Assembly: GCA_012026655.1 (NCBI GenBank)
Contig: JAAILG010000021.1
Location: forward strand, 62,001 to 126,000
DNA length: 64,000 nucleotides
Direction: 5' to 3'
Source: Hydrolagus affinis
Taxonomy: Eukaryota
The notes below the pieces were generated by a model that saw nothing but the letters and a program-made list of their open reading frames with translations, was not told the DNA's origin and ran no database searches. Both the position numbers and the translations under genes were made by a program. This document shows, in pieces, positions 1,051-60,639 of this stretch (its first letter is position 1; each line of letters opens with the position of its first letter).

Positions 1051-1092
1051 CTGATAAAACTCTCGAAGCCAGTTCTTTTGTAGGTTTTCAGG
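1051..1092 (-). CDS. INPP5A: INPP5A coding exon 2 (inositol polyphosphate-5-phosphatase A), 42 nt, phase 0/0
   Basis: Minus strand reads cctttttgttttgcag|CCTGAAAACCTACAAAAGAACTGGCTTCGAGAGTTTTATCAG|gtagga = PENLQKNWLREFYQ, matching the vertebrate INPP5A N-terminus (…GSLFDD-PENLQKNWLREFYQ-VVH…) from memory; canonical AG/GT sites with a polypyrimidine tract. Confidence 0.95.
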
Positions 1093-5844: not shown

Positions 5845-6168
5845 CTCCCCAGTAGCTCAGTGGTAGAGCACTCGCCTTACAAATGTGAGACTTGTGGTCA
5901 AATCCATGCAGATCAGGGCGAAACCTTGAGCAAGTTTCCTTACCCCACGCGACTAATAATAATCCATCCCCCCAAAAAATACATATTAATAAAATTTGGT
6001 CATTTCAATCCACGACTGTTTGTGGGACACTGCTGTGCGCAATTGGCTGCCACATTTCGCCCACAAATATACAGTCAATTCACTTTACAGTATATTCTGT
6101 GAAGCGCTTTGGGACATCGATAAGACGTGAAAATGCGCTATATCAAATGCAAGGATTATTATTATTAT
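5845..6168 (+). mobile_element. tRNA-headed Deu-domain SINE, young family (resembles chimaera SINE2-1-type), near full length
   Basis: Box A agtagctcagtggtagagc; Deu core tgtgggacactgctgtgcgcaattggctgcc; L2-type tail tgtgaagcgctttg…gcgctatatcaaatgcaagg; (ATT)n. Confidence 0.92.
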
Positions 6169-7291
6169 ATTAACCGAATTTGTTTGGTACTCCAGCAAGG
6201 AAATCAGCTTACTGAAACTGTAGTTCACTGTGAATAATACAGTGCTATATATGTTGCAAGTCCTTTATAAAATGGATTGGTACTTTTGGAAACTGCTGGA
6301 AACGTTCCTTTGGTGAATTGAAAACGGAAACTGATTCCGCAGTAATTGAAGGGTCAATGAAACCCGTAATGGAAGAGAAAGTATTGGTGCTTGAAGTATT
6401 GAAAGAATTCTCCCTGTGGTTCAATGTAGATTAAAACATTGCTTCCATATACATTATGTCAGTCAAACTTGTGGTCAAAGCATAAATAGAAACTCTATCT
6501 ACATCCACTATTCTCAGTCCCTATCCTCTATACTTCCTGCACTGCTGTCCAGAATGTAATTTACCAATTGTAATTAATACATCCTTCTAATTGACAAGGT
6601 TCTATAAATACATACTCAATTTTTAGTTTGACCGTTCTCTCCATTATTAAAGAGGGTCACTAACCATTGCAAGATTTCCCATTACCACTCACCAAACCTT
6701 TCATTTCAACCAAAACGTTTAATTATTTTTTCATGGGGAGACAGATTCCTACCACTTGAAATATTTGTTTCATTCCCTGTTATTTTAATTTCTGCATTGT
6801 CTGTCATGCTGTGCGCTGAGCTGGCTATCAACCAGATACAGTGAGTAGCTCCACCACACCGACACCGCAAGAGAGCTCCACAAGAGAGCTCTGCAGTTGC
6901 TGCTTCAAAATTGCCTCTTAAATTGCTGTTCTTGGTTACAAATCAGCTGGGAAGAGAGTAAATTAAAGACTCCCACATGGGTTGTGCTATTTTTAATATT
7001 ATCTAGTCCTCTACAGATAACTCAAACTTCCAATTATATTTGGTAGATGGCTGACCTTAGCATTCAGCCGCAGAAAAATTAACAGACACTTAAGTCCACA
7101 GATGTAATATAGTTGTGGCAGCTCTTCATAAACATTTGTAATGTTGCAGAGAACAGGACATCCATCCATCAACTTGGTGGATGACTAATTGGTAATAGAA
7201 AACCTGAAAGCTGTTCAATCACCAAACAGGGGGAGGGGGTAGGGCAATTTCAGATCTCAATTTACAAGTTTTGTTTTCTGATTCTTGAAGG

Positions 7292-8685: not shown

Positions 8686-9151
8686 TACTTGTAGGCAAAA
8701 TATGTAATAGGAGTATTGGATCCTATGTTCTTACGTGTTAAACTTCCTCAGGATAAGTAGACCCATTCACATACTTCATATACCCTATATACGTACAAAC
8801 CATTACTAACCCCATTGCCAATTCCTTTCTAAGCAGGCTACACAAGCTCAATCTGCAAAGAAACCCAAACCAAAGGATAGACGACCCCCCAAAGTCTACG
8901 TGGGACAGAGAGCAGATATCAATTATGCTCCAGAAAAGTTAATGCATTTTGCAAGGCACAGATGAAAGATTTCAGAGCAGATGAGAGTGCTCTCCAATGT
9001 TTGTATTTATTAACTGGGACAAATAGCAACCCAACCAATCCTATAATAAAGAATTGTACAATAAACATCCTATAATAAACTTTCTATAATAGAGAATATT
9101 TTGTTATAAAGACCATCAATATTATTACAAGCTGCAGTACAATACTTATGT

Positions 9152-9484
9152 GAAGTCCTGTAGCTCAGTGTTACAGCACACGCCTTACAAGCGAGAGACC
9201 TGGGTTTGATTCCCAGAGGGCGAAACCTTGGGCAACTTTCCCCACTCTACATGCCTGATAATAATCCCTCAAGAAAAGAACAATAATAAATTGGTCATTT
9301 CAATCCACGACTGTTTTGTGGGTCACTGCTGTGTACAATTGGCTGTCGTGTTTCGCCCACAATATTCTGTTTCGCCCAACAGAATATACTGTCGTGTTTC
9401 ACTTTACAGTATATTCTGTGAAACGCTTTGAGACGTTTAGAAGATGTGAAAAGCGCTATATCAAATGCAAGGATTAGTATTAAT
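9152..9484 (+). mobile_element. Young Deu-SINE, full length, with internal templated insertion
   Basis: tRNA head gtcctgtagctcagtg…gggtttgattccc; Deu core; L2-type tail. Confidence 0.92.
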
Positions 9485-10814: not shown

Positions 10815-11210
10815 AGTGAAGTCAGAAGAGACTTTTTTACCAAGAGAGTGATAGGAACTTAGAACTTGCTACCAGAGAGAGTAGTTGAGGCAAACAGAAT
10901 AAATGCATTCAAGGGGAAGCGAGATAAGCACATGAGGGAGAAATAAAGAGTATATTATACTGATAGGCTTAGTTGAGGAAGGGCAGGAGGAGGCTCACGT
11001 GGATCATAAATCCTGGCGTAGACTACCACCAGCAACAACAACTTTGATTTATATAGCGCCCTCCAGGCCGGACTGCGTCTCAGAGCGCTTCACAGTAACA
11101 GATCCCAGGACCAAACCAGGGGCAGGGATAGAAAGGTGACCAAAGGCGCGACCAGTTGGGCCGAATGGCCTGTTTCTATGCTGTATATTCCTAGTACAGT
11201 AGTTCTATGT
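10815..11210 (+). mobile_element. CR1 LINE 3' end, interrupted by an L2-type fragment
   Basis: ttttttaccaagagagtg…gtagttgaggca…ttcaaggggaagc (ORF2 end) and 3' UTR gttgggccgaatggcctgtttctatgctgta. Confidence 0.85.
11033..11150 (-). mobile_element. Second L2 family 3' fragment nested in CR1, possible TSD ACCAG
   Basis: (caa)n-ctttgatttatatagcgccctccaggccggactgcgtctcagagcgcttcac; related copies at 24330 and 52293; accag at 11028 and 11151. Confidence 0.8.
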
Positions 11211-11304: not shown

Positions 11305-11660
11305 TCTCAGTTGGTAACAGGCTCACTCTGGGTGAAAAGGCTGTTGGTTCAAGCTCCATATCAGGCCTTGAGCTCAGTCAAAATGACACTACAATACAAT
11401 ATTGTTGTGCACTATATTGTTGGAGTGATTCACAAGTTGTATTTTCCTGTTCAGGTGAGCAATAAAGAGAATTTATTGCTCACCTGAATGGCACTACAGT
11501 ATTTGAAAATAAGTAATTTTTTCCACAGTGTCCTGATCAACAATCTTCCAGATAAAAAAGACTGCTGAGATTTGCTCACAAAAAACAGTCCCTGTGTATA
11601 ATTCCTGTGTAATTATGTGCCATACTTTGAGGGGTTTCAATCAAATAAGTGAAATAAAAA
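11305..11660 (+). mobile_element. Old tRNA/Deu SINE (SacSINE1-like)
   Basis: ctcagttggtaac…ttggttcaagc…cctgttcaggtg…atggcactac…tgtcctgatcaac. Confidence 0.6.
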
Positions 11661-11941
11661 TGCAACTTCTTCCTTTTTTCATTTATACCCAGTACTGAGA
11701 TATGCCTGATGTGTGAAGTGGATTTTAAAACAATAAACCCGCTTTAATTTTCCAGCAAATTAAAATCTGTGTGCACAAGCATGCTGAAGAGTATAAAACT
11801 ACTATAAAACTACCCACATAGATTATCACTGTGAGTTAGCAAACACTGCGATGCATTTGTCAATAAAAAAATAAGGAAAACAAACATATAGCAGTGAAGA
11901 TCTTTTCATTTGAATCTATAAAGTTGAACCTAAATGCCTAA

Positions 11942-12196
11942 GACAAAACGCAAAGTACAGTACTGCAGATGCTGGAAGTCTGAAACAAAAACAGAAATCG
12001 CTGGGAACACTCAGCAGGTCAGGCAGCATCTATGGAGAAAGGAAAGTGAGTCAACATTTCAGGTCCACGGCCCTTCATCAGAAACGCAAAGTTTTGATGA
12101 AAGGTCATGGACACAAAACGTTGACTCACCTTCCTTTCTCCATAGATGCTGCCTGACCTGTTGAGTGTTCCCAGCGATTTCTGTTTTTGTTTCGAT
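11942..12196. mobile_element. Penelope-like-element-derived palindromic insertion with hammerhead-like cores; 8-bp flanking direct repeat ATGCCTAA
   Basis: Arms 11982-12083 and 12092-12193 are near-perfect reverse complements; ctgcagatgctggaa…ctcagcaggtcaggcagcatc is the abundant chondrichthyan PLE terminal sequence (recalled); atgcctaa at 11934 and 12197. Confidence 0.8.
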
Positions 12197-13943
12197 ATGC
12201 CTAAAATATGGTTTGATTGATGACTACTCGCTCCTCCTCCCAAATCCTCTCCTCCCACCTCCATAATTATTTACATTGTGCCCAATGCTGTTACACAAAG
12301 CAAACAGTTTAAATACTTGAATACTTTCCTACAGGTTAACACATGTTGACATGTTTCTTGCTGAGAAAAGTGCCATTTTGGCACTAATGCATGGAACAGA
12401 TGCCATGCCACCAGCTGTTAGCAGTGCGAGAGATAACACTTAGCCTGGTAAGGTCGATAATGAGATCCATAAGTAATAAACTGCGTTATAAATTATGAAT
12501 CCGTATTGAACCTTCAGTTTACCTGCAGATCAAGACAGGCTATCGGCAGTGTGAGGAATGTAACAGTAGTACAAGTAAACAACTGAAGAATTGACAGGGT
12601 ACAGCCATTATCGCCATCTATAATTTGTGTCTAACAAACTCCAATGTTGCTTTTTGACACATTAACACAGATGACATGATTTACATTCTTAATGTACATT
12701 CATATAATCACATCTTAGTGTTAGCCTCTGATGGCCTATTTCCATGAATTGTTCACTAATAAGAAATGTATTGTTGCCTGCTATATGTTTCAAGTGTTTA
12801 GATATGGTCTCTCAGTGATTATTATCCAACTGTGGTACATTGCTTACCACATTTCAGCCAAAGATCAGAACATCTTTCAGAATCTAGCATACAATTCTGA
12901 AATCTAGCCTATAACAAACTGGTTTGATGCCTGAAAATATTGGTTGTTTTATCCATGGCTTTAATACAAATCAGCTAGTTACTAAACTAACTGCCCAATT
13001 ATTGCCATAGTTTTACAAGTAAACACTCGATAACGATTGGCTTCATCCCCACGCTAGAAAGCCATTGAAAAATGTCACTCCAATCTTGATTTATGAAATA
13101 ACAACAGCTGCATGTGTATGTGACACCTAACAACGAATGATCCTATTGATGAACTAGATCGGCTTTGCCTCTCCTTTGTCATGATGTAAACGTGCTGCTA
13201 CAAGAAATACTAGTAACTGTCATCACAAGTGACTTCCCTCCCTCCCTCTCTCGAAGCAGTAAACAAATGCCCACTTCATGGGCCCGTGCATAATTAGACT
13301 AGTTTAGTTTTTTTTCCATCAATTTTTCATTGATGTGATTCTCATCAATAGAGATACATCACGGTTTTGCCTCCTGATTTGTGACCTTAAAATCACTTGC
13401 TTGCACCGCAGCCAAAGAACTTTAGCTCTTGCCTTGTGAAAACGCTTACTGCTGTCTAGCAGCCTTTGCTGATACATTTAAATCATTGAGATAGATATGG
13501 CTGGTTTGTCAAGATGCTCTGGCTTTGGATCTTGGTTTCCGCTGAAACCCATGTGATCTGCAAACCTTTCGATCACAGGCCAGTGACTTGTGGGCTAATT
13601 CAATCTGAAGTAGACAAGGCAAAACACACAGCATAACAGATGTATGATTCGATTCCTAGCGTGCATGTGGTTCATTAGTTGAGTATTGCTCTAAGCAATC
13701 AAAGCTAGTAATAACTGGGTCTGTACGTGCAAAGAACATATGTTTATCCAGAGTCATTAAGCAGAAACTATCAGGATATTTTAACATGAATAGTGGGATT
13801 TAAGTACATTGTGGATCCAAACAAATCAAAATTCAAAAAATTACCCAAAGTCAATAATCAACTCTGCATTTTCAACAATTTTGGAACGGGGAGAACGGGG
13901 CAGCTTGCTGAAGATCCTTATTGTGAAGTTACATGTGGCATAT

Positions 13944-17510: not shown

Positions 17511-17848
17511 TAATAATAATAATAATCCTTTCATTTGATATAGCGCTTTTCACATCTTATCGACGTCCCAAAGCGCTTCACAGAATATACTGTGAAGTGA
17601 ATTGACTGTATATTTGTGGGCAAATTGCGGCAGCCAATTGCGCACAGCAGTGTCCCACAAACAGTCGTGGATTGAAATGACCAATTTTATTATTTGTTTT
17701 TTGGGGATAGATTATTATTAGGCGTGTGGAGTAAGGAAACTTGCCCAAGGTTTAGCCCTGACCTGCCTGGATTCGAATACAGGTCTCCCCAGCTTGGTCT
17801 TCCCAGCTTGCAAGACAAGTGCTCTAACCACTAAGCCACAGGAGCTCC
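17511..17848 (-). mobile_element. Young Deu-SINE, full length, subfamily with a 14-bp head duplication; TSD CACTTA
   Basis: Complete head, core and tail; cactta at 17507 and 17848. Confidence 0.93.
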
Positions 17849-20200: not shown

Positions 20201-20504
20201 ACAAATAAATATTGCACACACAAAAAATACCATGTCATGTTACAGTGACACAACCAATCTTCCTTATTTACAGCTCAGTCTGTTATGTGCCATAAATCAT
20301 GAGTGAAAAAAGTCAGCATGTCATGAAGGTCTAATATAGAGTGGAGACTACACTCAACACCACATACAACTCACAATCACTGACCTAATACTCATGATTA
20401 GTCAGTGCATATAAGTTCAGATACCTGGGGAATTCTGTCAATCAACTTTATTTAAGTTTTGCTACAATTTAAAAACAACATAGCAAGGCATCATATTCAA
20501 TGTG

Positions 20505-20826
20505 ATAATAATAATAATAATCTTTTTATTTGATATAGCGCTTTTCACGTCTTCTAGACATCTCAAACTGCTTCACAGAATATACTGTAAAGTGAATTGA
20601 CTGTATGTTTGTGGGCGAAACATGGCAGCCAATTGCGCACAGCAGCGTCCCACAAACAGTCATGGATTGAAATGACAAATTTTATTATTGTGTGTTTTTT
20701 GAAGGGATTATTATTAGGTGTGTGGAATAAGGAATTTGCCCACGGTTTCGCCCTGATCTGCCTGGATTCAAACATAGGTCTCAGGCTTGTAAGGTGAGTG
20801 CTCTAACCAGTGAGCTACAGGATTCC
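20505..20826 (-). mobile_element. Young Deu-SINE, full length
   Basis: (AAT)n tail, Deu core, tRNA head gtgctctaaccagtgagctacaggattcc. Confidence 0.92.
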
Positions 20827-22344
20827 ATAGAAGATGAGGTTTTCTAGTTCATGGATTCATTTGTTGCAGAAAACCAGTATTTTTGTGATCGCTGTGAGAG
20901 TTTTTTCCAAACTTAAAAGACTGAATAAGTTAACTTATGCTTTATAGCCATTTTAATACTGTTCTTTAACAAAACAGCTCGTAAATCTTTCCAATCAGTC
21001 AGTCTCTAAGATGTTGCTTCATTCCATAATCAGAAACATTTTCATCCTACTTAAATCAGACATTAGTATCTTCCATTACACTCCATTCATTGCACATTCT
21101 TCCTCATCACCTCCACCACCCACGCATTTAGTTGGTAGGAACACTTCAGCTGATCTTAAACGGACCACACCCAACAGCGAGAGCAATGATGCTCATTCGT
21201 GTGCTATCTTCAGAAATCATTCTTTGCATTTTAAAACTAGTTACGGAAAATTCTTTTTCCTGTATAAATTCTCGTCTGTCACAATTGCAGACTGGCAAAT
21301 GGACTGTGGAATACAGTGGAAACTAACTGATGCTATTACATTGCAACCTGGCTTACTCATTGCATCATCAGATAATGCTTAGTGAATTACAGATTTTTAA
21401 AATACAGTAATACACTTTTATAAAAAGAATTGTGCATCCTGGGCATTCCCTTGAGTCTATATCAACAAAGCTCCTCCACATAGAGTTGTTATTAGCTTTA
21501 TGCAACAATTCCTTGCAACAAGACCAGGGTATTTTAGGGCATTTAAAGCTCTCTCTATAGGTTTATCTGGACCTAAAATTTACTTGAATTACAATCTGTT
21601 CATGATTACTGTTCATCTGTGATTATGAACAACAACCATACATTTGAAAGTGGACAAGCTTTTTCTAAATGCCACATATAATTACTGCAATACAAGAGTG
21701 TTATATAAGATTTTTGCTTTTTTTTCACATTCGCTATCATAATTGGTTGAACCCTGTTGAACTATATAGCCTGGATTTCCTTTTACTATTGGTTGAATTA
21801 TCCTAGGCACTGCACTCAAGAACACTTTCACTGTGGCGAGTGAGGCTGCCTGAATGGGGGAATCTGCTTGAAAGGTTCTAACTGCAGGCGGGTGGTTGGT
21901 GTCTGCTGCAAGAACTAAAGCCTCCATTTCCTCTCACCATCAAAATGCAACTTTGAAGAAAGACAGCCGACTTTCAATTCGCCTGCATTGCCTTTGTATC
22001 GACACATGCGGTGATCAATGAATCAACAAAATGGCCTTTTATGAAAAACAAATTGCACAGAAAGCTCATTGAATTACAATGTGAGTGAAAAAGCCAAAAG
22101 AATGTGCTGGTTGATGATACTGCTGAACAACAGAACAAAAGTAGCTTCTTTAATACATTAAATAAAAAGCATTTGGAACTAGTTTGGCTCAATTTTAATA
22201 CGTATGTATAAATATTCCTGGCAGATCAATATTCTACAAACAAGCCCACTTTAAGATCAAAGTTGAACATTCATTTAAAGCTATGAATAGATGAACAAAT
22301 TCTAGATACTTGGCGTTCTTAAGGAAAACACATCACAATAATCA

Positions 22345-28002: not shown

Positions 28003-30800
28003 TCAATCCCATTGCCCAGCTTTCTCCCCATAACCTAACAGACCTGCTCTTCCTAAATAAAGATCTAGTTCCCTTTTAAAAGCTGTTATGGAATCTGCCT
28101 CTACCACCTTTTCAGGCAATGCATTCCAGATTCGAACAACCCGCTGAGTGAAAAAATTTCTCCTCAGCTCCCCTCTGCTTCGTTTTGAAACTATTTTAAA
28201 TCTGTAACCACGAGTCACTGATTCACCCACCAGTGGAAACAGTCTTTCCCTATTAATTCTGTTGAAACCTCTCATAATCTTATAAACCTCTATCAGGTCT
28301 CCTCTCAATCTTCTTTGTTCTAGAGAGAATAAGCCTAGCCTATCCAGCCTTTCCTTGTAGCTGAAGTCCCTCATTCCTGTTACCATCCTAGTAAATCTCC
28401 TCTGCACCCTTTCCAATGCCTTAATATCTTTCCTAAAGTGTGGTGACCAGAATTGTACACAGTACTCCAAATGAGGCCTAACCAAAGTCTTATAGAGGTT
28501 AATCAGCACTTCCTGACTTTTGTATTCTATATCTCTATTTATAAAGCCTAGTATCCCATATGCCTTCTTAACAGCTTTGTCTACCTGTCCTGCCACTTTC
28601 AAAGAGTCACTAGCACAAATCCCCAGGTCTCTCTGTTCCTTCACACCCCTTAAAATTGTACTATCTAGCCTATATTGCCTCCCCTGATTTCTTCTCCCAA
28701 AGTGTATCACCTCACACTTCTCTGTATTAAACTTCATCTGCCATGTGTCTGCCCACTTTACCATTTTATCTATATCCTCTTGCAGATGACTACTATCCTC
28801 CTCACTATTTACTATTCTCCCTAACTTAGTATCATCTGCAAATTTGGAAACCGTACTCCCTAAACCCAAATCATTAATGTATATTAAAAAGAGCAGTGGT
28901 CCCAAAACTGATCCCTGGGGGAAGCTACTGCACACTTCCCTCCAGTCTGAAAAGCAGCCACTCACCACAACTCTCTGCTTTCTGTCTCGCAGCCAGTTGT
29001 GGATCCAGGCTACCACTGTCCCTTTAACGCCGTGGGCTTCTATTTTCCTAATAAGCCTCTCATGCAGCACATTGTCAAATACCTTTTGAAAGACCATGTA
29101 AACTACATCAACTGCGCTGCCCTCGTCCACCCATTCCGTTATATCATCGAAAAATTCTTACAGATTTCTAAGGCAAGATTTGCCTTTAACAAATCCATGC
29201 TGGCTGACCTTTACCTATATTTTTCTAAGTGAAGATCTATCTTATCCCTGATTATAGACTCTAGAAGTTTGCCCACCGCTGATGTTAGACTGACTGGCCT
29301 GTAGTTTCCAGGTTTGTCCTTCTGCCCCTTTTTATACAGGGGAGTAATATTCCTCTGTACCAGTCCTCTGGTACCACCCCTGTGTCCAAGAAAGATTGAA
29401 AGATTGTGGCCAGAGTCTCTGCTATTTGCTCCCGTACTTCCCTTAGTAACCTAGGATGCATCCCATCCAGACCAGGCGACTTATCTACCTTGAGCGCTGT
29501 CAACCTTTTTAGTACTTCCTCTCTGTTTATGCTTATCTTATCCATTTCTACTATACTCTCCTCCAATACTGTGACATTGGTTGCATCTTCTTCCTTTGTG
29601 AAGACAGAAGCAAAGTACTCATTCAGTACATCAGCCAGCCCTCTGCCTCCACAATAAGATTTCCTCCTTGGTCCCTTATTGGCCCCACCCTACCCTTGAC
29701 CAATCTTTTACCCTTAATATGTTTGTAAAATACCTTAGGATTCCCTTTAATGTTACCTGCTAATTGTTTCTCATGCATTCTTTTTGCCCCTCTAACTTTC
29801 TTTTTTAGTTCTCTCCTGCACTTCCTATATTCCGATTGGTTGAATTCTGTATTCTGGGCCTGACATTTATCATAAGCCTCCTTTTTTTGCTTTATTTTCA
29901 CCCTAACTGCCCTAGTCATCCAGGGAGGTTTGGATGCCCTACATTTTACCTTTGTCGGAATGTTTCTAACCTGTGCCCGAATTATCTCTTCCTTGAAGAC
30001 TGCCCACTGCTTGTTAGCCGTATTACCTGCCAATCTTTCTTTCCAGTCCACCTTGGCTAGGTCCAGCTTTAGCTCACTGAAATTAGCCTTTTCCAATTGA
30101 GTGTCTTCACCTCTGAGTGTTCCCTATCCTTTTCCATAATTACACTGAACCTAATCGTATTGTGATCGCTATTCCCTAGGTGCTCACCTGCAGAAACCTG
30201 CTCTACTTGCCCCACCTCATTCGCCAAAACAGGATCCAGAACTGCGTCCTTCCTTGTTGGACTGGAAACATTGATCGAGAAAGTTGTCCTGAACACATTT
30301 CAGGAATTCTTCTCCCTCCTTGCCCTTTACACTATTGTTCTGCCAGTTGATGTCGGGATAATTAAAGTCACCCAATATCACTACTATTAGCTCTGCATCT
30401 TTCTGAAATCTGCTTGCAGATTCGCTCATCTATCTCCTTCCCGCTATTTGGTGGTCTATAGTATACCCCTAACAGTGTAACTGCTCCTTTTTTGTTCCTC
30501 AACTCCAACCAAATAGATTCGGTTTTCAGGCCTTCTTCCACCTCGATCCTTTCTAAGGCTGTAACCAAGTTCTTAATTAATATTGCCACCCCACCTCCTT
30601 TTCTCCTTCTCTGTCTCTCCTGAATACATTATAGCCAGAAATGTTCAGTTCCCATTCCTGCCCTTCCTTGAGCCAGGTCTCTGTTAGTGCTACCACATCA
30701 TATCCCCTTGCAGCAACTTGAGCCTGCAGCTCACTAATTTTGTTTGTCAAACTACGTGCATTTGCATACATGCACTTCAAGACAGAATTGGCCTGCTCTA
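28003..30800 (-). pseudogene. CR1 ORF2 (endonuclease/reverse transcriptase), broken into several frames
   Basis: Consecutive ORF-track pieces 30577-30903, 30368-30589, 30217-30429, 30069-30296, 29623-30096, 29285-29566 and 28003-29130 are collinear EN/RT fragments. Confidence 0.93.
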
Positions 30801-32329: not shown

Positions 32330-33062
32330 TAGTAAAAGCCTGTTTATCCGGCACTCATGGAACCTGGCCAATGCCGGTTAAAACAGATATTGCCGGATAT
32401 TCGGGCGGCCCGCGGCCGAAAATCCACCACAAAAAAATTAAACTTCTTTTAACACACACCATATACACCAGACTAAATAATAACAGAAGATTGTATTGCT
32501 ACTTATTGTTAAAACTACTCTCTTGCGCTTCTCACCTTTACTGATTGAGGTTTACAGAACAGTGATTCTTTCTTAAATGGAGGATGCCAAGCGGGTGAAA
32601 AAAACGGCAGCACGATTTTAAAGTCGCGTGACTTTACTAGCGGCAAGCCGATAACCCTAGACTTTACTAGAGGCAAACCAAAATACTGCACCTGCACGAC
32701 AATGTGGATTATCGGCTAGCGTTATCGGCTTGCCGCTAGTATGGCTTTAAAGTCTCGCTCCGTTTTTTTTCACCCACTTGGCGTGCTCCATTTTTAAAAA
32801 ATCGCTGGACTATAAACCTCAACCGCAGCATCATGGCTTCAAGCGCAGAATCTATCAGCAAGGTGAGAAGCACAAGACAGTAGTTTTAACAATAAGTACC
32901 AATACAGTATTCTGTTATTATGTTATTATTTATGCATTTATAAATTCTCCTCCGCTATTGTTCCGGATAAGTTCCGGTTTATCGAATGGGGACTTTTTTT
33001 TTGGCGTGCCGGTTATGCGTAAGTGCCAGTTCATCAAGTCACGGATAAATGGGCTTCTACTG
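32330..33062. mobile_element. Tigger/pogo non-autonomous element, 733 bp, with an internal inverted duplication
   Basis: Same TIRs and TA TSD as the MITEs; internal arms 32476-32660 and 32716-32921; remnant GEKRKRVVLTIS of a CENP-B/Tigger N-terminus. Confidence 0.9.
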
Positions 33063-50619: not shown

Positions 50620-50965
50620 GAGCTCCTGTGGCTCAGTGGTTAGAGCACTTGTCTTGCAAGCTGGGGAGACCAAGCTGGGGAGACCTGTGTTCGAATCCAG
50701 GCAGGTCAGGGCGAAACCTTGGGCAAGTTTCCTTACTCCACACGCCTAATAATAATCTCTCCAAAAAAAACACACAATAATAAAATTGGTCATTTCAATC
50801 CATGACTGTGTGTGGGACACTGCTGTGCGCAATTGGCTGCCGCGATTCGCCCACAAATATATACAGTCAATTCTCTTTACAGTATATTCTGTGAAGCGCT
50901 TTGAGACGTTGATAAGATGTGGAAAGCGCTATACCAAATGCAAGGATTATTATTATTATTATTAT
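50620..50965 (+). mobile_element. Young Deu-SINE, full length, 14-bp head duplication subfamily; TSD AACTTGA
   Basis: Box A tggctcagtgg, box B gttcgaatcc, Deu core, (ATT)n; aacttga at 50615 and 50966. Confidence 0.94.
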
Positions 50966-53006: not shown

Positions 53007-54398
53007 TCACAAAATGACCAACCACTGCATCACTTCAAATAAAAATGTTAATTAACCTAGAATCTGCCATTTAAATAGTGCAGTGAATACAACATCAATA
53101 TGGCAAACATGCTGCTACCCATGAGTATTTAGGAGTGATTGTGCCTGAAACACAATGATAGTTCCTGTTTCCATCAGCACAAGAGGAAAACTGCCAAAAT
53201 AGTGAATCTGTGAATTGGTACTTTGCGGCATTGCATTGTCATAGATGCTTACATAGCAAATTAAAGTGTTATTGCTATATGGGATGCATTGACATAAACA
53301 TATATCTTTCCGCATTCCTTTCTTTCTTTACTTTCTTCAAATTCTGCTCTACTTAAAAGGGCCGGCAAGCTTGTTGCTCTGACGGCAAACATACAACCAA
53401 CATCTATGAGGTGCTCAGAGAAGGTCCAAATTTACTCTATTGATTCTGACGACCCCAGTAAAAGATAAGAACTCACTGTGCAGATAATCATGAGTGTATC
53501 CCCAGCACTCCGTTGTGTTCTGCCTATATTTTCAATGAAGGATAACTCAAGGTCATTTACAGACCTGGTAAATGGGAAAATTACACAACAATATTTATTT
53601 TAAACTCTATATATTTAGCAGTTCCAAGATGGGAGGTTTCTTCAAGGCCTGCCTAAATTTAACTTTCTGTGGGAGTTGCATATTGGAGCTGAATTTATTT
53701 CCTGTTGACTATAAATAACAGAATTGAAAGGGGGCAGAATAAAGAAAACACATCTTATGCAGGTTTTCTACAAGTCAGTGGAAGGAGACTTAACTCTTGT
53801 CTCCGGTTTTATGCGCTAAAGATGTGGTGGTAGTAAAAATTAAACAGCTTCAACAAAATGGCCACCACTAACTCAATGCCTCCTGGTTCTTCCTGTGGAG
53901 TCTGGAGATCATTTATCAGCGCAATGACTCCAGCATTTACTTTTGGTTTTTCTTCCCTCACTAACTGCAACTTCACCCAGGAGTCCTTTCACCTTGCCAC
54001 GCCCCTAACCTCCTTCAAATAAGTTGTATGTTGTTTACTGGTTAAAATAAAGTTATTACCCTTTTTAAAAATTATTTTTCTAAATCTTGCATCTTCGCTA
54101 CCAAGTGTGCACACAAGCAGCTAAGACATCCAGAGTTGCTTTCCAATATTCTTTTTTTAAAGTGTTTGAAAACAGTCAAGAGAAAATGTTTCTTTGGGCA
54201 CACTGCCAAAGTATGCTGTGTGGAATATTTTTAGATCTAAGTACTGTAGTACTGCTCCTCTGAAAGTATGATATAGTCTCAATCTCTGACTGATAAGAGC
54301 AATACAGTAGAGTAAAATCTAACCCGGATAAAAGGTTGCCAAGGTTATTAAGCTTGAACTTGTTAAAATTACAGATGAGTTTGAAGACCGAGCAAATA

Positions 54399-54874
54399 CA
54401 GTAAAAGCCCGTTTATCCGGCACCCACGGGACCTGGCCAATGCCGGTTAAAGCGCCTACTGGATATTCGGGCAGCCCACTGTCGAAAACCCACCACACAA
54501 AAATTAAAGTTCTTTTAACACAAACCATACACAGCAGACTAAATAATAACAGAATATTGTATTGGCACTTATTGTCAAAACTACTCTCTTGCGCTTCTCA
54601 CCTTTACTGGTTGAGGTTTATTGTCCAGCGATTCTTTTTAAAATGGAGGACGCCAAGTGGGTGAAGAAAATGGCAGCGCGACTTTAAAGCCTTATTAGCG
54701 GCATACCGATAACCCTAGACTCTACTAGCAGCAAACCAAAATACTGCACCTGTTCAACAATGACTCACAAATGCTACCCCGCTATTGTTCCGAATAAGTG
54801 GAGACTTTTTTGGGGGCATGCTGGTTATACGGAAGTGCCGGTTCTTTGAGTCATGGATAAACGGGCTTCTACTG
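54399..54874. mobile_element. Tigger/pogo non-autonomous element, 476 bp
   Basis: ta-cagtaaaagcccgtttatccggcaccc … ggataaacgggcttctactg-ta; collinear with the left half of 32330-33062. Confidence 0.92.
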
Positions 54875-59590: not shown

Positions 59591-60243
59591 GATCTTCCCT
59601 CAAGTTAATAATATTGCTTTAATAACCAAAACAATCCAGCAGTCTCAGGGTCCTGATAGACATGCACCAGGAAGTATTTATTTGCACAGTGCGTAATCCA
59701 CAGCTGGAAAATGAATCCTTGAGACTAGAACATCAGATTAGTTTAAGAAATAACTTGATCATATAATCTGATGATCATATAGTTTGTATAACAATAATAA
59801 ATAATAATCCTTCCTCATAGCCTTCTTCATCCAACCTGTCTTATGATCCTACAAGAAATGCTTAAACCTAAACCATATGTTGGTCCCTGTGAAAGGCCGC
59901 AAATTATTAACCACTGACTTTTGAAAAAAAATCATATGAACATAGGATAGTGGAATTTGGGGGCTTGAAGGGAGGTGGAAGCTCACAGTGAGGTCCCAGC
60001 AATTCTCCAGCTTTGTTATTGAAGAAGCGGGTGATTGGAAACATAATGTCATGTTGGAGAGTTGTGAAGATCAGGAAGAGGGAAGAATACGAGAGACCAA
60101 AAAGGGAACAGGAAATAAAATTGCAAACCACTAAAATATTATTTCATAACAATCTAAAATGCATCCTCATCATAGCATGTGATATACGCAGAGACTATTT
60201 AAGTACGTAACTAAGTAACTTTCCTTGATGTGCAACCTAATGT

Positions 60244-60548
60244 GGAGTACTGCAGCTCAGTGGTTCTCACTCGGCTCGCAAGTGAGAAACCTGGGTTCAA
60301 TTCCCAGCAGGGTGAAACCTTGGGCAAGTTTCCTTACTCCACAAGCCTAATAATAATCCCTTAAATTAAAAAAAAATGTGATCACTTAATCCATGATTGT
60401 TTGTGGGACACTACTGTGTGCAATTGGCTGCTGCATTTTGCCCATAAATCTAGAGTCAATTAATGTTACAGTATATTCTGTGAAACGCTTTATGACGTCT
60501 GGAAGATGTGATAAGCGCTATATCAAACGCAAGGATTATTATTATTAT
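60244..60548 (+). mobile_element. Young Deu-SINE, full length
   Basis: ggagtactgcagctcagtgg…gggttcaattccc; Deu core; tail; (ATT)n. Confidence 0.9.
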
Positions 60549-60639
60549 AAAGACTCCAAGATGCCAAAGAAAAGCAGCAATAGCAGAAGGGAATAGTGCA
60601 CCAAAAGTAATAGCAAATAATGTCTACAATTGATGCAGT

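Follow-up and report, generated by a model that had tools for sequence, protein, structure and literature searches.

Insertions of endonuclease-bearing Penelope-like elements (EN+ PLEs) are described, in the parts of the relevant papers available to us (PMC3846280, PMC8557442, PMC2377424), as head-to-head inverted pLTRs with an optional tail of 30-40 bp and a target-site duplication (TSD) of 8-10 bp. Metazoan PLEs carry minimal type I hammerhead ribozymes, and the accessible text of PMC4209133 reports opposite-strand hammerhead pairs 100-700 bp apart, together with thousands of solo motifs; that text names no cartilaginous fish. In work with the purified protein of one PLE, both strands were cut and extended, with two internal start sites that bound the tail and with uncleaved RNA as the main template (PMC11167929).

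The hairpin that we describe here lies in a 64,000-nucleotide stretch of a Hydrolagus affinis contig (JAAILG010000021.1; the window). It shares with the EN+ PLE units, as far as those papers could be consulted, the inverted pLTR, the tail at one end, the short TSD and a single ORF in the parent that links RT to a C-terminal GIY-YIG domain, but it consists of two ends only, without an ORF; and whereas the published pieces are termed 5'-truncated, most of those found here share a single stop point, marked by an extra G. The hammerheads of its family agree with those of PMC4209133 in the core boxes, in one extra base that separates A9 from stem II, in the G10.1-C11.1 pair, in a helix I of 4 bp and in a self-complementary helix III, but the present pair is about 10 bp apart and both of its members are decayed. 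PAc, the Anolis Poseidon element studied in vitro (PMC11167929), resembles our family in having two start sites that bound the tail, AT-rich targets and an uncleaved RNA template, and its both-strand priming fits our palindromes. Those data come, however, from a clade other than the one found here: our parent element has a CX4CxxC linker that is lacking in Poseidon, and its first ATG, seen in two near-full copies, follows the tail, whereas that of PAc lies within stem II. Non-LTR retrozymes (10.64898/2026.07.22.740005, consulted in part) are likewise pLTR-derived, hammerhead-bearing, non-coding and dispersed, but they are direct tandem repeats that enable dimer cleavage, of which an inverted pair is incapable. 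L1, in the available portion of PMC11702581, likewise has an extra G at its 5' junctions, and its second target end primes an inverted second cDNA (twin priming); the enzyme is of another class, and in our family both cDNAs would cover one 100-bp stretch of RNA, giving a palindrome. The locus itself is ordinary, a decayed insertion of a very common element of a known kind; of what is added here, the cap-like G alone is of interest to specialists.

The hairpin, its family and its parent element

The hairpin is formed by two 102-nt stretches (11982-12083 and 12092-12193), 90% complementary, with 8 nt between them and differences at 10 of the 102 positions; these values bear out the sequence-only reading, which had noted near-perfect arms of about 100 bp around an 8-nt loop. 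Its fold of -184.5 kcal/mol (z -22.9) was equalled by none of 100 shuffles. The 8-bp direct repeat ATGCCTAA, proposed as a TSD, is present both on the left (11934-11941) and on the right (12197-12204, after three spacer bases), and TSDs are in excess family-wide, as set out below. We number positions along the arm from C3 of the hammerhead as 0, with the predicted cut between +28 and +29. The left arm (11982-12083) is a pLTR end whose sense is the minus strand and which begins at -2; the right arm (12090-12193) is a tail-less pLTR end of plus sense that starts from the first stem I base, at -4. Both hammerhead-like motifs carry the letters claimed for them, the left one on the minus strand (12049-12081, C3 at 12081, predicted cut at 12053/12052) and the right core on the plus strand (12094-12122, C3 position 12094), where C3U and G12A have occurred.

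Between the arms lies a 6-bp junction filler (12084-12089), which resembles the end of the element's own tail, with an 11-nt match to it and overlaps of 3 and 2 nt with the two arms. The 11-mer AAACGCAAAGT does occur twice, at 12082-12092 and at 11946-11956, as had been claimed, and a template-jump origin of the central filler is supported by this tail match and by the overlaps. The stretch 11943-11981 belongs to the element and not to the flank: it is the one-sided tail, on the minus strand, 39 bp long here, including a 5-bp insertion, against about 33 bp across the family, and the insertion variant is also found in a few contigs of relatives. The hairpin is almost certainly an insertion of endonuclease-bearing PLE pLTR ends, and we think it likely that it represents one old insertion, in which two ribozyme-bearing pLTRs came to lie head to head between 8-bp TSDs by run-off to a capped end.

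A genome search with the hairpin gave 4,500 candidates, the best 40 of which were scored and are 82-90% identical to it. Exact genome matches number 1,478 for an arm 31-mer and 4,380 for a 22-letter core pattern, and we estimate by hand, from per-site conservation, that the genome holds about 17,000 core-bearing arms; the copies diverge from the family majority by 8.8% on average. From the first 100 listed matches to the 31-mer, a motif in the arm away from the centre of the palindrome, 91 were fetched as 90 loci, leaving 89 (this copy included) after one duplicate had been dropped. An inverted head-to-head partner lies upstream in 46 of these 89 loci and a direct copy in one. The 3' (outer) ends of the arms are bimodal, near +100 and +132, and among 40 close palindromes both outer ends could be assigned in 32: 28 of these pair a tailed end with a short one, three are short at both and one is tailed at both (p=1e-5; here and below, p-values treat family copies as independent). 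TSD scores of at least 8 were reached by 16/40 palindromes, 5/34 solos and 5/300 mismatched controls, a count that leaves out 15 of the 89 loci (six with arms more than 35 bp apart and nine solos that reach native upstream sequence); these rates are lower bounds, because the TSD finder missed the present copy, where the tail insertion shifted the end call. At three loci (L082, L106, L109) an apparently solo arm is separated from the TSD by 9-15 bases of the opposite end, which are very short inverted partners.

Searching with one ORF as query gave 4,543 candidates, of which 128 matches were scored and 20 ORF loci fetched. In 18 of the 20 the arm follows the end of the ORF by 195-591 bp in the same orientation (15 of them within 270-320 bp), and one of the two lacking it ends at a contig edge; the arm is therefore the pLTR of a Penelope-like element, and the Penelope-type origin that had been suggested, with linkage to such an element, is upheld by the ORF linkage and by the pLTR architecture. 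An arm match was present at 13 of 35 GIY-YIG loci, the remainder being another GIY-YIG family or short contigs; five loci (L044, L045, L059, L060, L064) represent a second GIY-YIG retroelement family that is unlinked to this arm. Alignment of three ORF pieces along a 798-aa protein that carries RVT_1 and GIY-YIG domains shows 46-50% identity, and Pfam matches to GIY-YIG were obtained, the RT piece alone matching weakly (E 0.018). The linker before GIY-YIG reads CX4CxxC in L062, P0002 and P0007; a CX2-5CxxC motif is attributed to Neptune and Nematis, and described as absent in Penelope and Poseidon, in the accessible part of PMC8557442. On these motifs the parent appears to be a Penelope-like element with a Neptune/Nematis-type linker, and an assignment to Poseidon was dropped.

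Two near-full copies (L178 and L196) have a pLTR piece plus tail just before the ATG, a partial tandem found in these two of the 20 loci, and their upstream pLTRs begin at +57 and +86, not at -4. The ends of the ORF-linked copies were placed by pairwise mapping, nested repeats having distorted the multiple alignment. Both near-full copies also show a strong splice-acceptor-like site after the tail and just before the ATG, which suggests an intron within the 5' UTR, like that of Drosophila Penelope. A likeness of the TSD to the ORF start was judged to be chance.

The ribozyme in the family and in this copy

The majority letters of 159 arms spell a complete minimal type I hammerhead, with a 4-bp stem I (AGUU/GACU), a stem II of 5 bp, an additional A following A9, the G10.1-C11.1 pair and a self-complementary helix III, ACGU. 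The core letters are intact in 67 of the 159 arms, and every hammerhead feature occurs together in 11 of the 102 arms that span them all. Whether CUGAUGA/GAAA is more conserved than its flanks, the comparison called for by the sequence-only reading, receives a divided answer: non-CpG core sites are more uniform than the flanks (0.96 vs 0.89, p=0.017, 159 arms), since the subfamily differences sit outside the core, but the catalytic G8 and G12, at 0.75 and 0.77, do no better than other CpG sites (0.62-0.81) and show ordinary CpG decay, which places the constraint on source elements and not on inserted copies.

In the present copy the left arm differs from the family majority at five positions, three of them C>T at CpG sites, and the right arm at nine. 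The left hammerhead keeps its core letters, but G10.1-C11.1 is now a wobble pair, stem II has one mismatch and the self-complementarity of helix III is lost. The 5' strand of stem I, described earlier as not evident, is in fact present in the right arm as AGTT (12090-12093), with all four pairs possible; in the left arm it is partly replaced by the junction filler, leaving three of four pairs and one mismatch. The stems of the left hammerhead come to +5.0 kcal/mol, compared with -6.3 to -8.2 in four other family copies. On transcription of the minus strand the antisense arm emerges before the left ribozyme arm; in the context of the hairpin the pair probability of the ribozyme stems is 0 in every prefix tested, and forcing the stems costs 42.7 kcal/mol. 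Both ribozymes of this copy are thus predicted by folding and by their core letters to be catalytically inactive, the right through C3U and G12A and the left through its damaged stems and its burial in the hairpin, in keeping with the likely inactivity proposed from the letters. As the two cores lie on opposite strands they are unable to dimerise, and a single transcript holds one core, paired to its antisense copy.

A scan with the Rfam hammerhead models, suggested as a check on the element, gave no match at E<=10 either at this locus or at ten other family loci, the search returning only microRNA-type hairpin matches below threshold. Minimal PLE hammerheads may be beyond the reach of these models.

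Copy ends, the extra G and the origin of palindromes

Of 135 arm starts, 68 fall at -7 to +2, two at -21 to -8 and 14 further upstream. Genome-wide, the five native bases upstream are kept in 1,225 of 4,380 cores, so that, allowing for decay, about 40% of core-bearing arms run on and about 60% end no more than 5 nt from the ribozyme's first base. Where the base before the first stem I base is not the native C (703 copies) it is G in 338, A in 201 and T in 164, an excess of G over the 26% expected (p=9e-37), and that G is preceded by T in 217 of the 338, against 30% expected. Forty of the first listed G-copies were fetched, among which nothing common was found further upstream of the TG. Twenty of them are solos; 12 of these have a TSD and eight have none detectable, and 11 have the G, by itself or accompanied by 1-11 further bases, between TSD and arm. 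An extra G at 5' junctions is read as a trace of mRNA capping in L1, in the part of PMC11702581 available to us, and by analogy the stop point and untemplated G of our family likely mark the capped start of the element's RNA. The present copy is itself without the extra G. We found no report of a cap-derived G for PLEs in the literature outside subscription journals, Repbase and Dfam, and the G offers a cheap, testable prediction of the RNA start site. No pile-up of RNA starts appeared in the polyA libraries of a relative, which as fragment libraries may not show ends.

No hotspot was found at the ribozyme cleavage site: of the 2,633 arms reaching this site 100 were listed, and, judged by eye, 1-2 of these begin there, three begin at +27 and two at +25, and about 90 run on through the core. 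That so few ends fall at the cut accords with the use of uncleaved RNA in vitro (PMC11167929). Arm starts based on alignment show a mild excess at +23 to +30 (17 of 135 in these eight positions, three of them at +28 to +30, as against 18 in the 20 preceding positions), and CpG decay may lie behind the excess at +23 to +26.

These observations could be accounted for as follows. Capped RNA of the element would begin at the first base of the hammerhead, and the PLE protein would cut both strands of AT-rich DNA, each cut end then priming reverse transcription within the RNA's 5' portion, the one from the end of the tail (+132), the other from a point about 33 nt earlier (+100). Each cDNA would pass the uncleaved ribozyme and stop at the cap, where a C would often be added opposite it, along with other untemplated bases, and the two run-off cDNAs would be joined end to end, sometimes via a re-copied filler, to give a palindrome. 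Success on one strand would leave a solo arm, and priming in the element's 3' pLTR would give the longer copies that reach into the ORF. We lean towards the view that short Penelope stubs are complete run-off cDNAs of a capped RNA (compare retroviral strong-stop DNA) and that palindromes are two of them, primed from both cut strands. If this is so, the inverted pLTR with its one tail is explained, and what the genome records is where the RNA starts, that it is capped, from which two sites it is primed and that the ribozyme does not cleave the germ-line template. The family statistics have a bearing on a question of the PLE papers themselves, namely the origin of the inverted repeat and tail and whether the ribozyme cuts the template.

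On balance we prefer such run-off to self-priming, stalling or splicing as the source of these ends. Fold-back self-priming, or stalling of the polymerase at the ribozyme structure, within the same PLE insertion, seems unlikely to us, even though the available text of PMC3846280 explains head-to-head PLE junctions by self-priming, a few junctions use short homologies, stem I included (L247, L215), and the pLTR 5' region is re-copied in 16 of 41 fillers: if a fold-back on stem I were responsible, another G should stand two positions ahead of the extra one, which holds for 4 of 40 copies, and a non-T should precede the G in seven copies of a second subfamily, of which five have T (by eye). Solo arms, moreover, have the identical stop and extra G, and simple fold-back leaves the combination of one tailed and one short outer end unexplained. 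The native sequence before the ribozyme does resemble a splice acceptor, with a pyrimidine tract and CAG in ORF-linked copies, and in Drosophila virilis Penelope helix I has the end of an intron on its 5' side (PMC4209133, available part). On such a reading the boundary might be a splice acceptor; the arms would have been copied from spliced RNA, and the extra TG would be the last bases of a very short exon lying upstream. It is, however, highly improbable that splicing made these ends, given that the 40 copies share nothing upstream of the TG, that in two solos a lone G separates TSD and arm, and that the arm ends are spread over -7 to +2 with no fixed joint.

The sequence-only reading had called the hairpin a non-autonomous fold-back retro-unit, and copying as a unit by PLE protein would suit the finding that all 40 best-scoring relatives are palindromes of similar size, as well as the existence of hammerhead-bearing, non-autonomous PLE derivatives in the form of tandem retrozymes (10.64898/2026.07.22.740005, as far as accessible). 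Those 40 relatives, however, were picked with a palindromic query, and the junction fillers speak against a unit. In 78 palindromes (40 from the 89-locus sample and 38 best genome matches, in a family that holds thousands) the filler is at least 5 nt long in 41, and all 41 differ; thus palindromes appear to arise at each insertion, with no master unit. The source of the filler is the pLTR 5' region in 16 of the 41, against 8% in shuffles, and an outer end in four (2-3% each in shuffles), the filler of the present copy belonging to this end-derived minority. The only identical junction pair seen (L008/L010) has common flanks as well, and therefore is a duplicated locus; and solo, palindromic and ORF-linked forms make up one continuum with ends at the same places. 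We accordingly set the retro-unit aside as very improbable. That the host has retained the copy as an intronic ribozyme or regulatory hairpin is scarcely credible: both junctions are found in one relative (the right one borderline) and the right one probably in another, and the left core letters are intact, but the 10 differences between the 102-nt arms, and the five and nine from the majority, are in line with the family's mean divergence, intact cores occur in 67 of 159 arms anyway, and the cost of forcing the ribozyme stems is that given above.

The host intron, its relatives and neighbouring repeats

Three minus-strand exon candidates lie in the correct order at contig 136.3 kb, at window 1092-1051 and at contig 45.7 kb, and resemble what we take to be exons 1-3 of INPP5A; the second (1051-1092, minus strand), the top-scoring candidate, is the probable host exon 2. 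By this order the insertion lies upstream of exon 2, within intron 1, which is about 73 kb long. Pfam searches gave no match on the exon candidates, a genome search for PF22669 listed no match on this contig, a search with ten short motifs gave no convincing exon within the window, and the one lead from the Atlas was weak, 25% of one cluster carrying PF22669. By the fold given above, the insert would form a 100-bp hairpin in the host pre-mRNA and so place long dsRNA in the intron. Two further family members (L203:6385-6517 and L203:2640-2776, contig 56.4 and 52.7 kb) lie in the next host intron, one being a short, lopsided palindrome.

In relative A one contig crosses the left junction and another crosses the right by a borderline 32 letters, and in relative B the right junction is crossed at a similarly borderline margin; the insertion is therefore probably older than those splits. 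No empty site was found among the joints listed from relatives' DNA, the flanks being hardly covered in organisms C and D. PolyA reads of relative B lie over the repeats and none over the unique flanks; they are mostly 85-95% alike and so come from other family copies. Differences of the A>G type were considered as editing and rejected, those checked matching family majority letters.

The window holds several other repeats. A perfect 17-bp inverted repeat with a 5-bp loop (11450-11488) lies 450 bp from the element; it has no other match within two mismatches in 251 fetched loci, and relative B differs inside it. Very high-copy short repeat pieces lie just to the left of the hairpin element (11033-11190). 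A SINE-like repeat of about 340 bp, 75-93% alike and in both orientations, recurs in the same intron at 5849-6172, 9145-9482, 17511-17847, 20495-20827, 50620-50961 and 60237-60552, and a second, older inverted self-match (32477-32921, 65% over about 445 bp) lies in a repeat that is also found at 54397-54762. A 384-aa open frame at 28003-29157 on the minus strand encodes a LINE-type reverse transcriptase, presumably CR1-like. Elsewhere, at L076 (3-1409, minus strand), an intronless 469-aa kinase frame, which we take to be testis-specific serine kinase-like, lies about 1 kb from a palindrome of the family.
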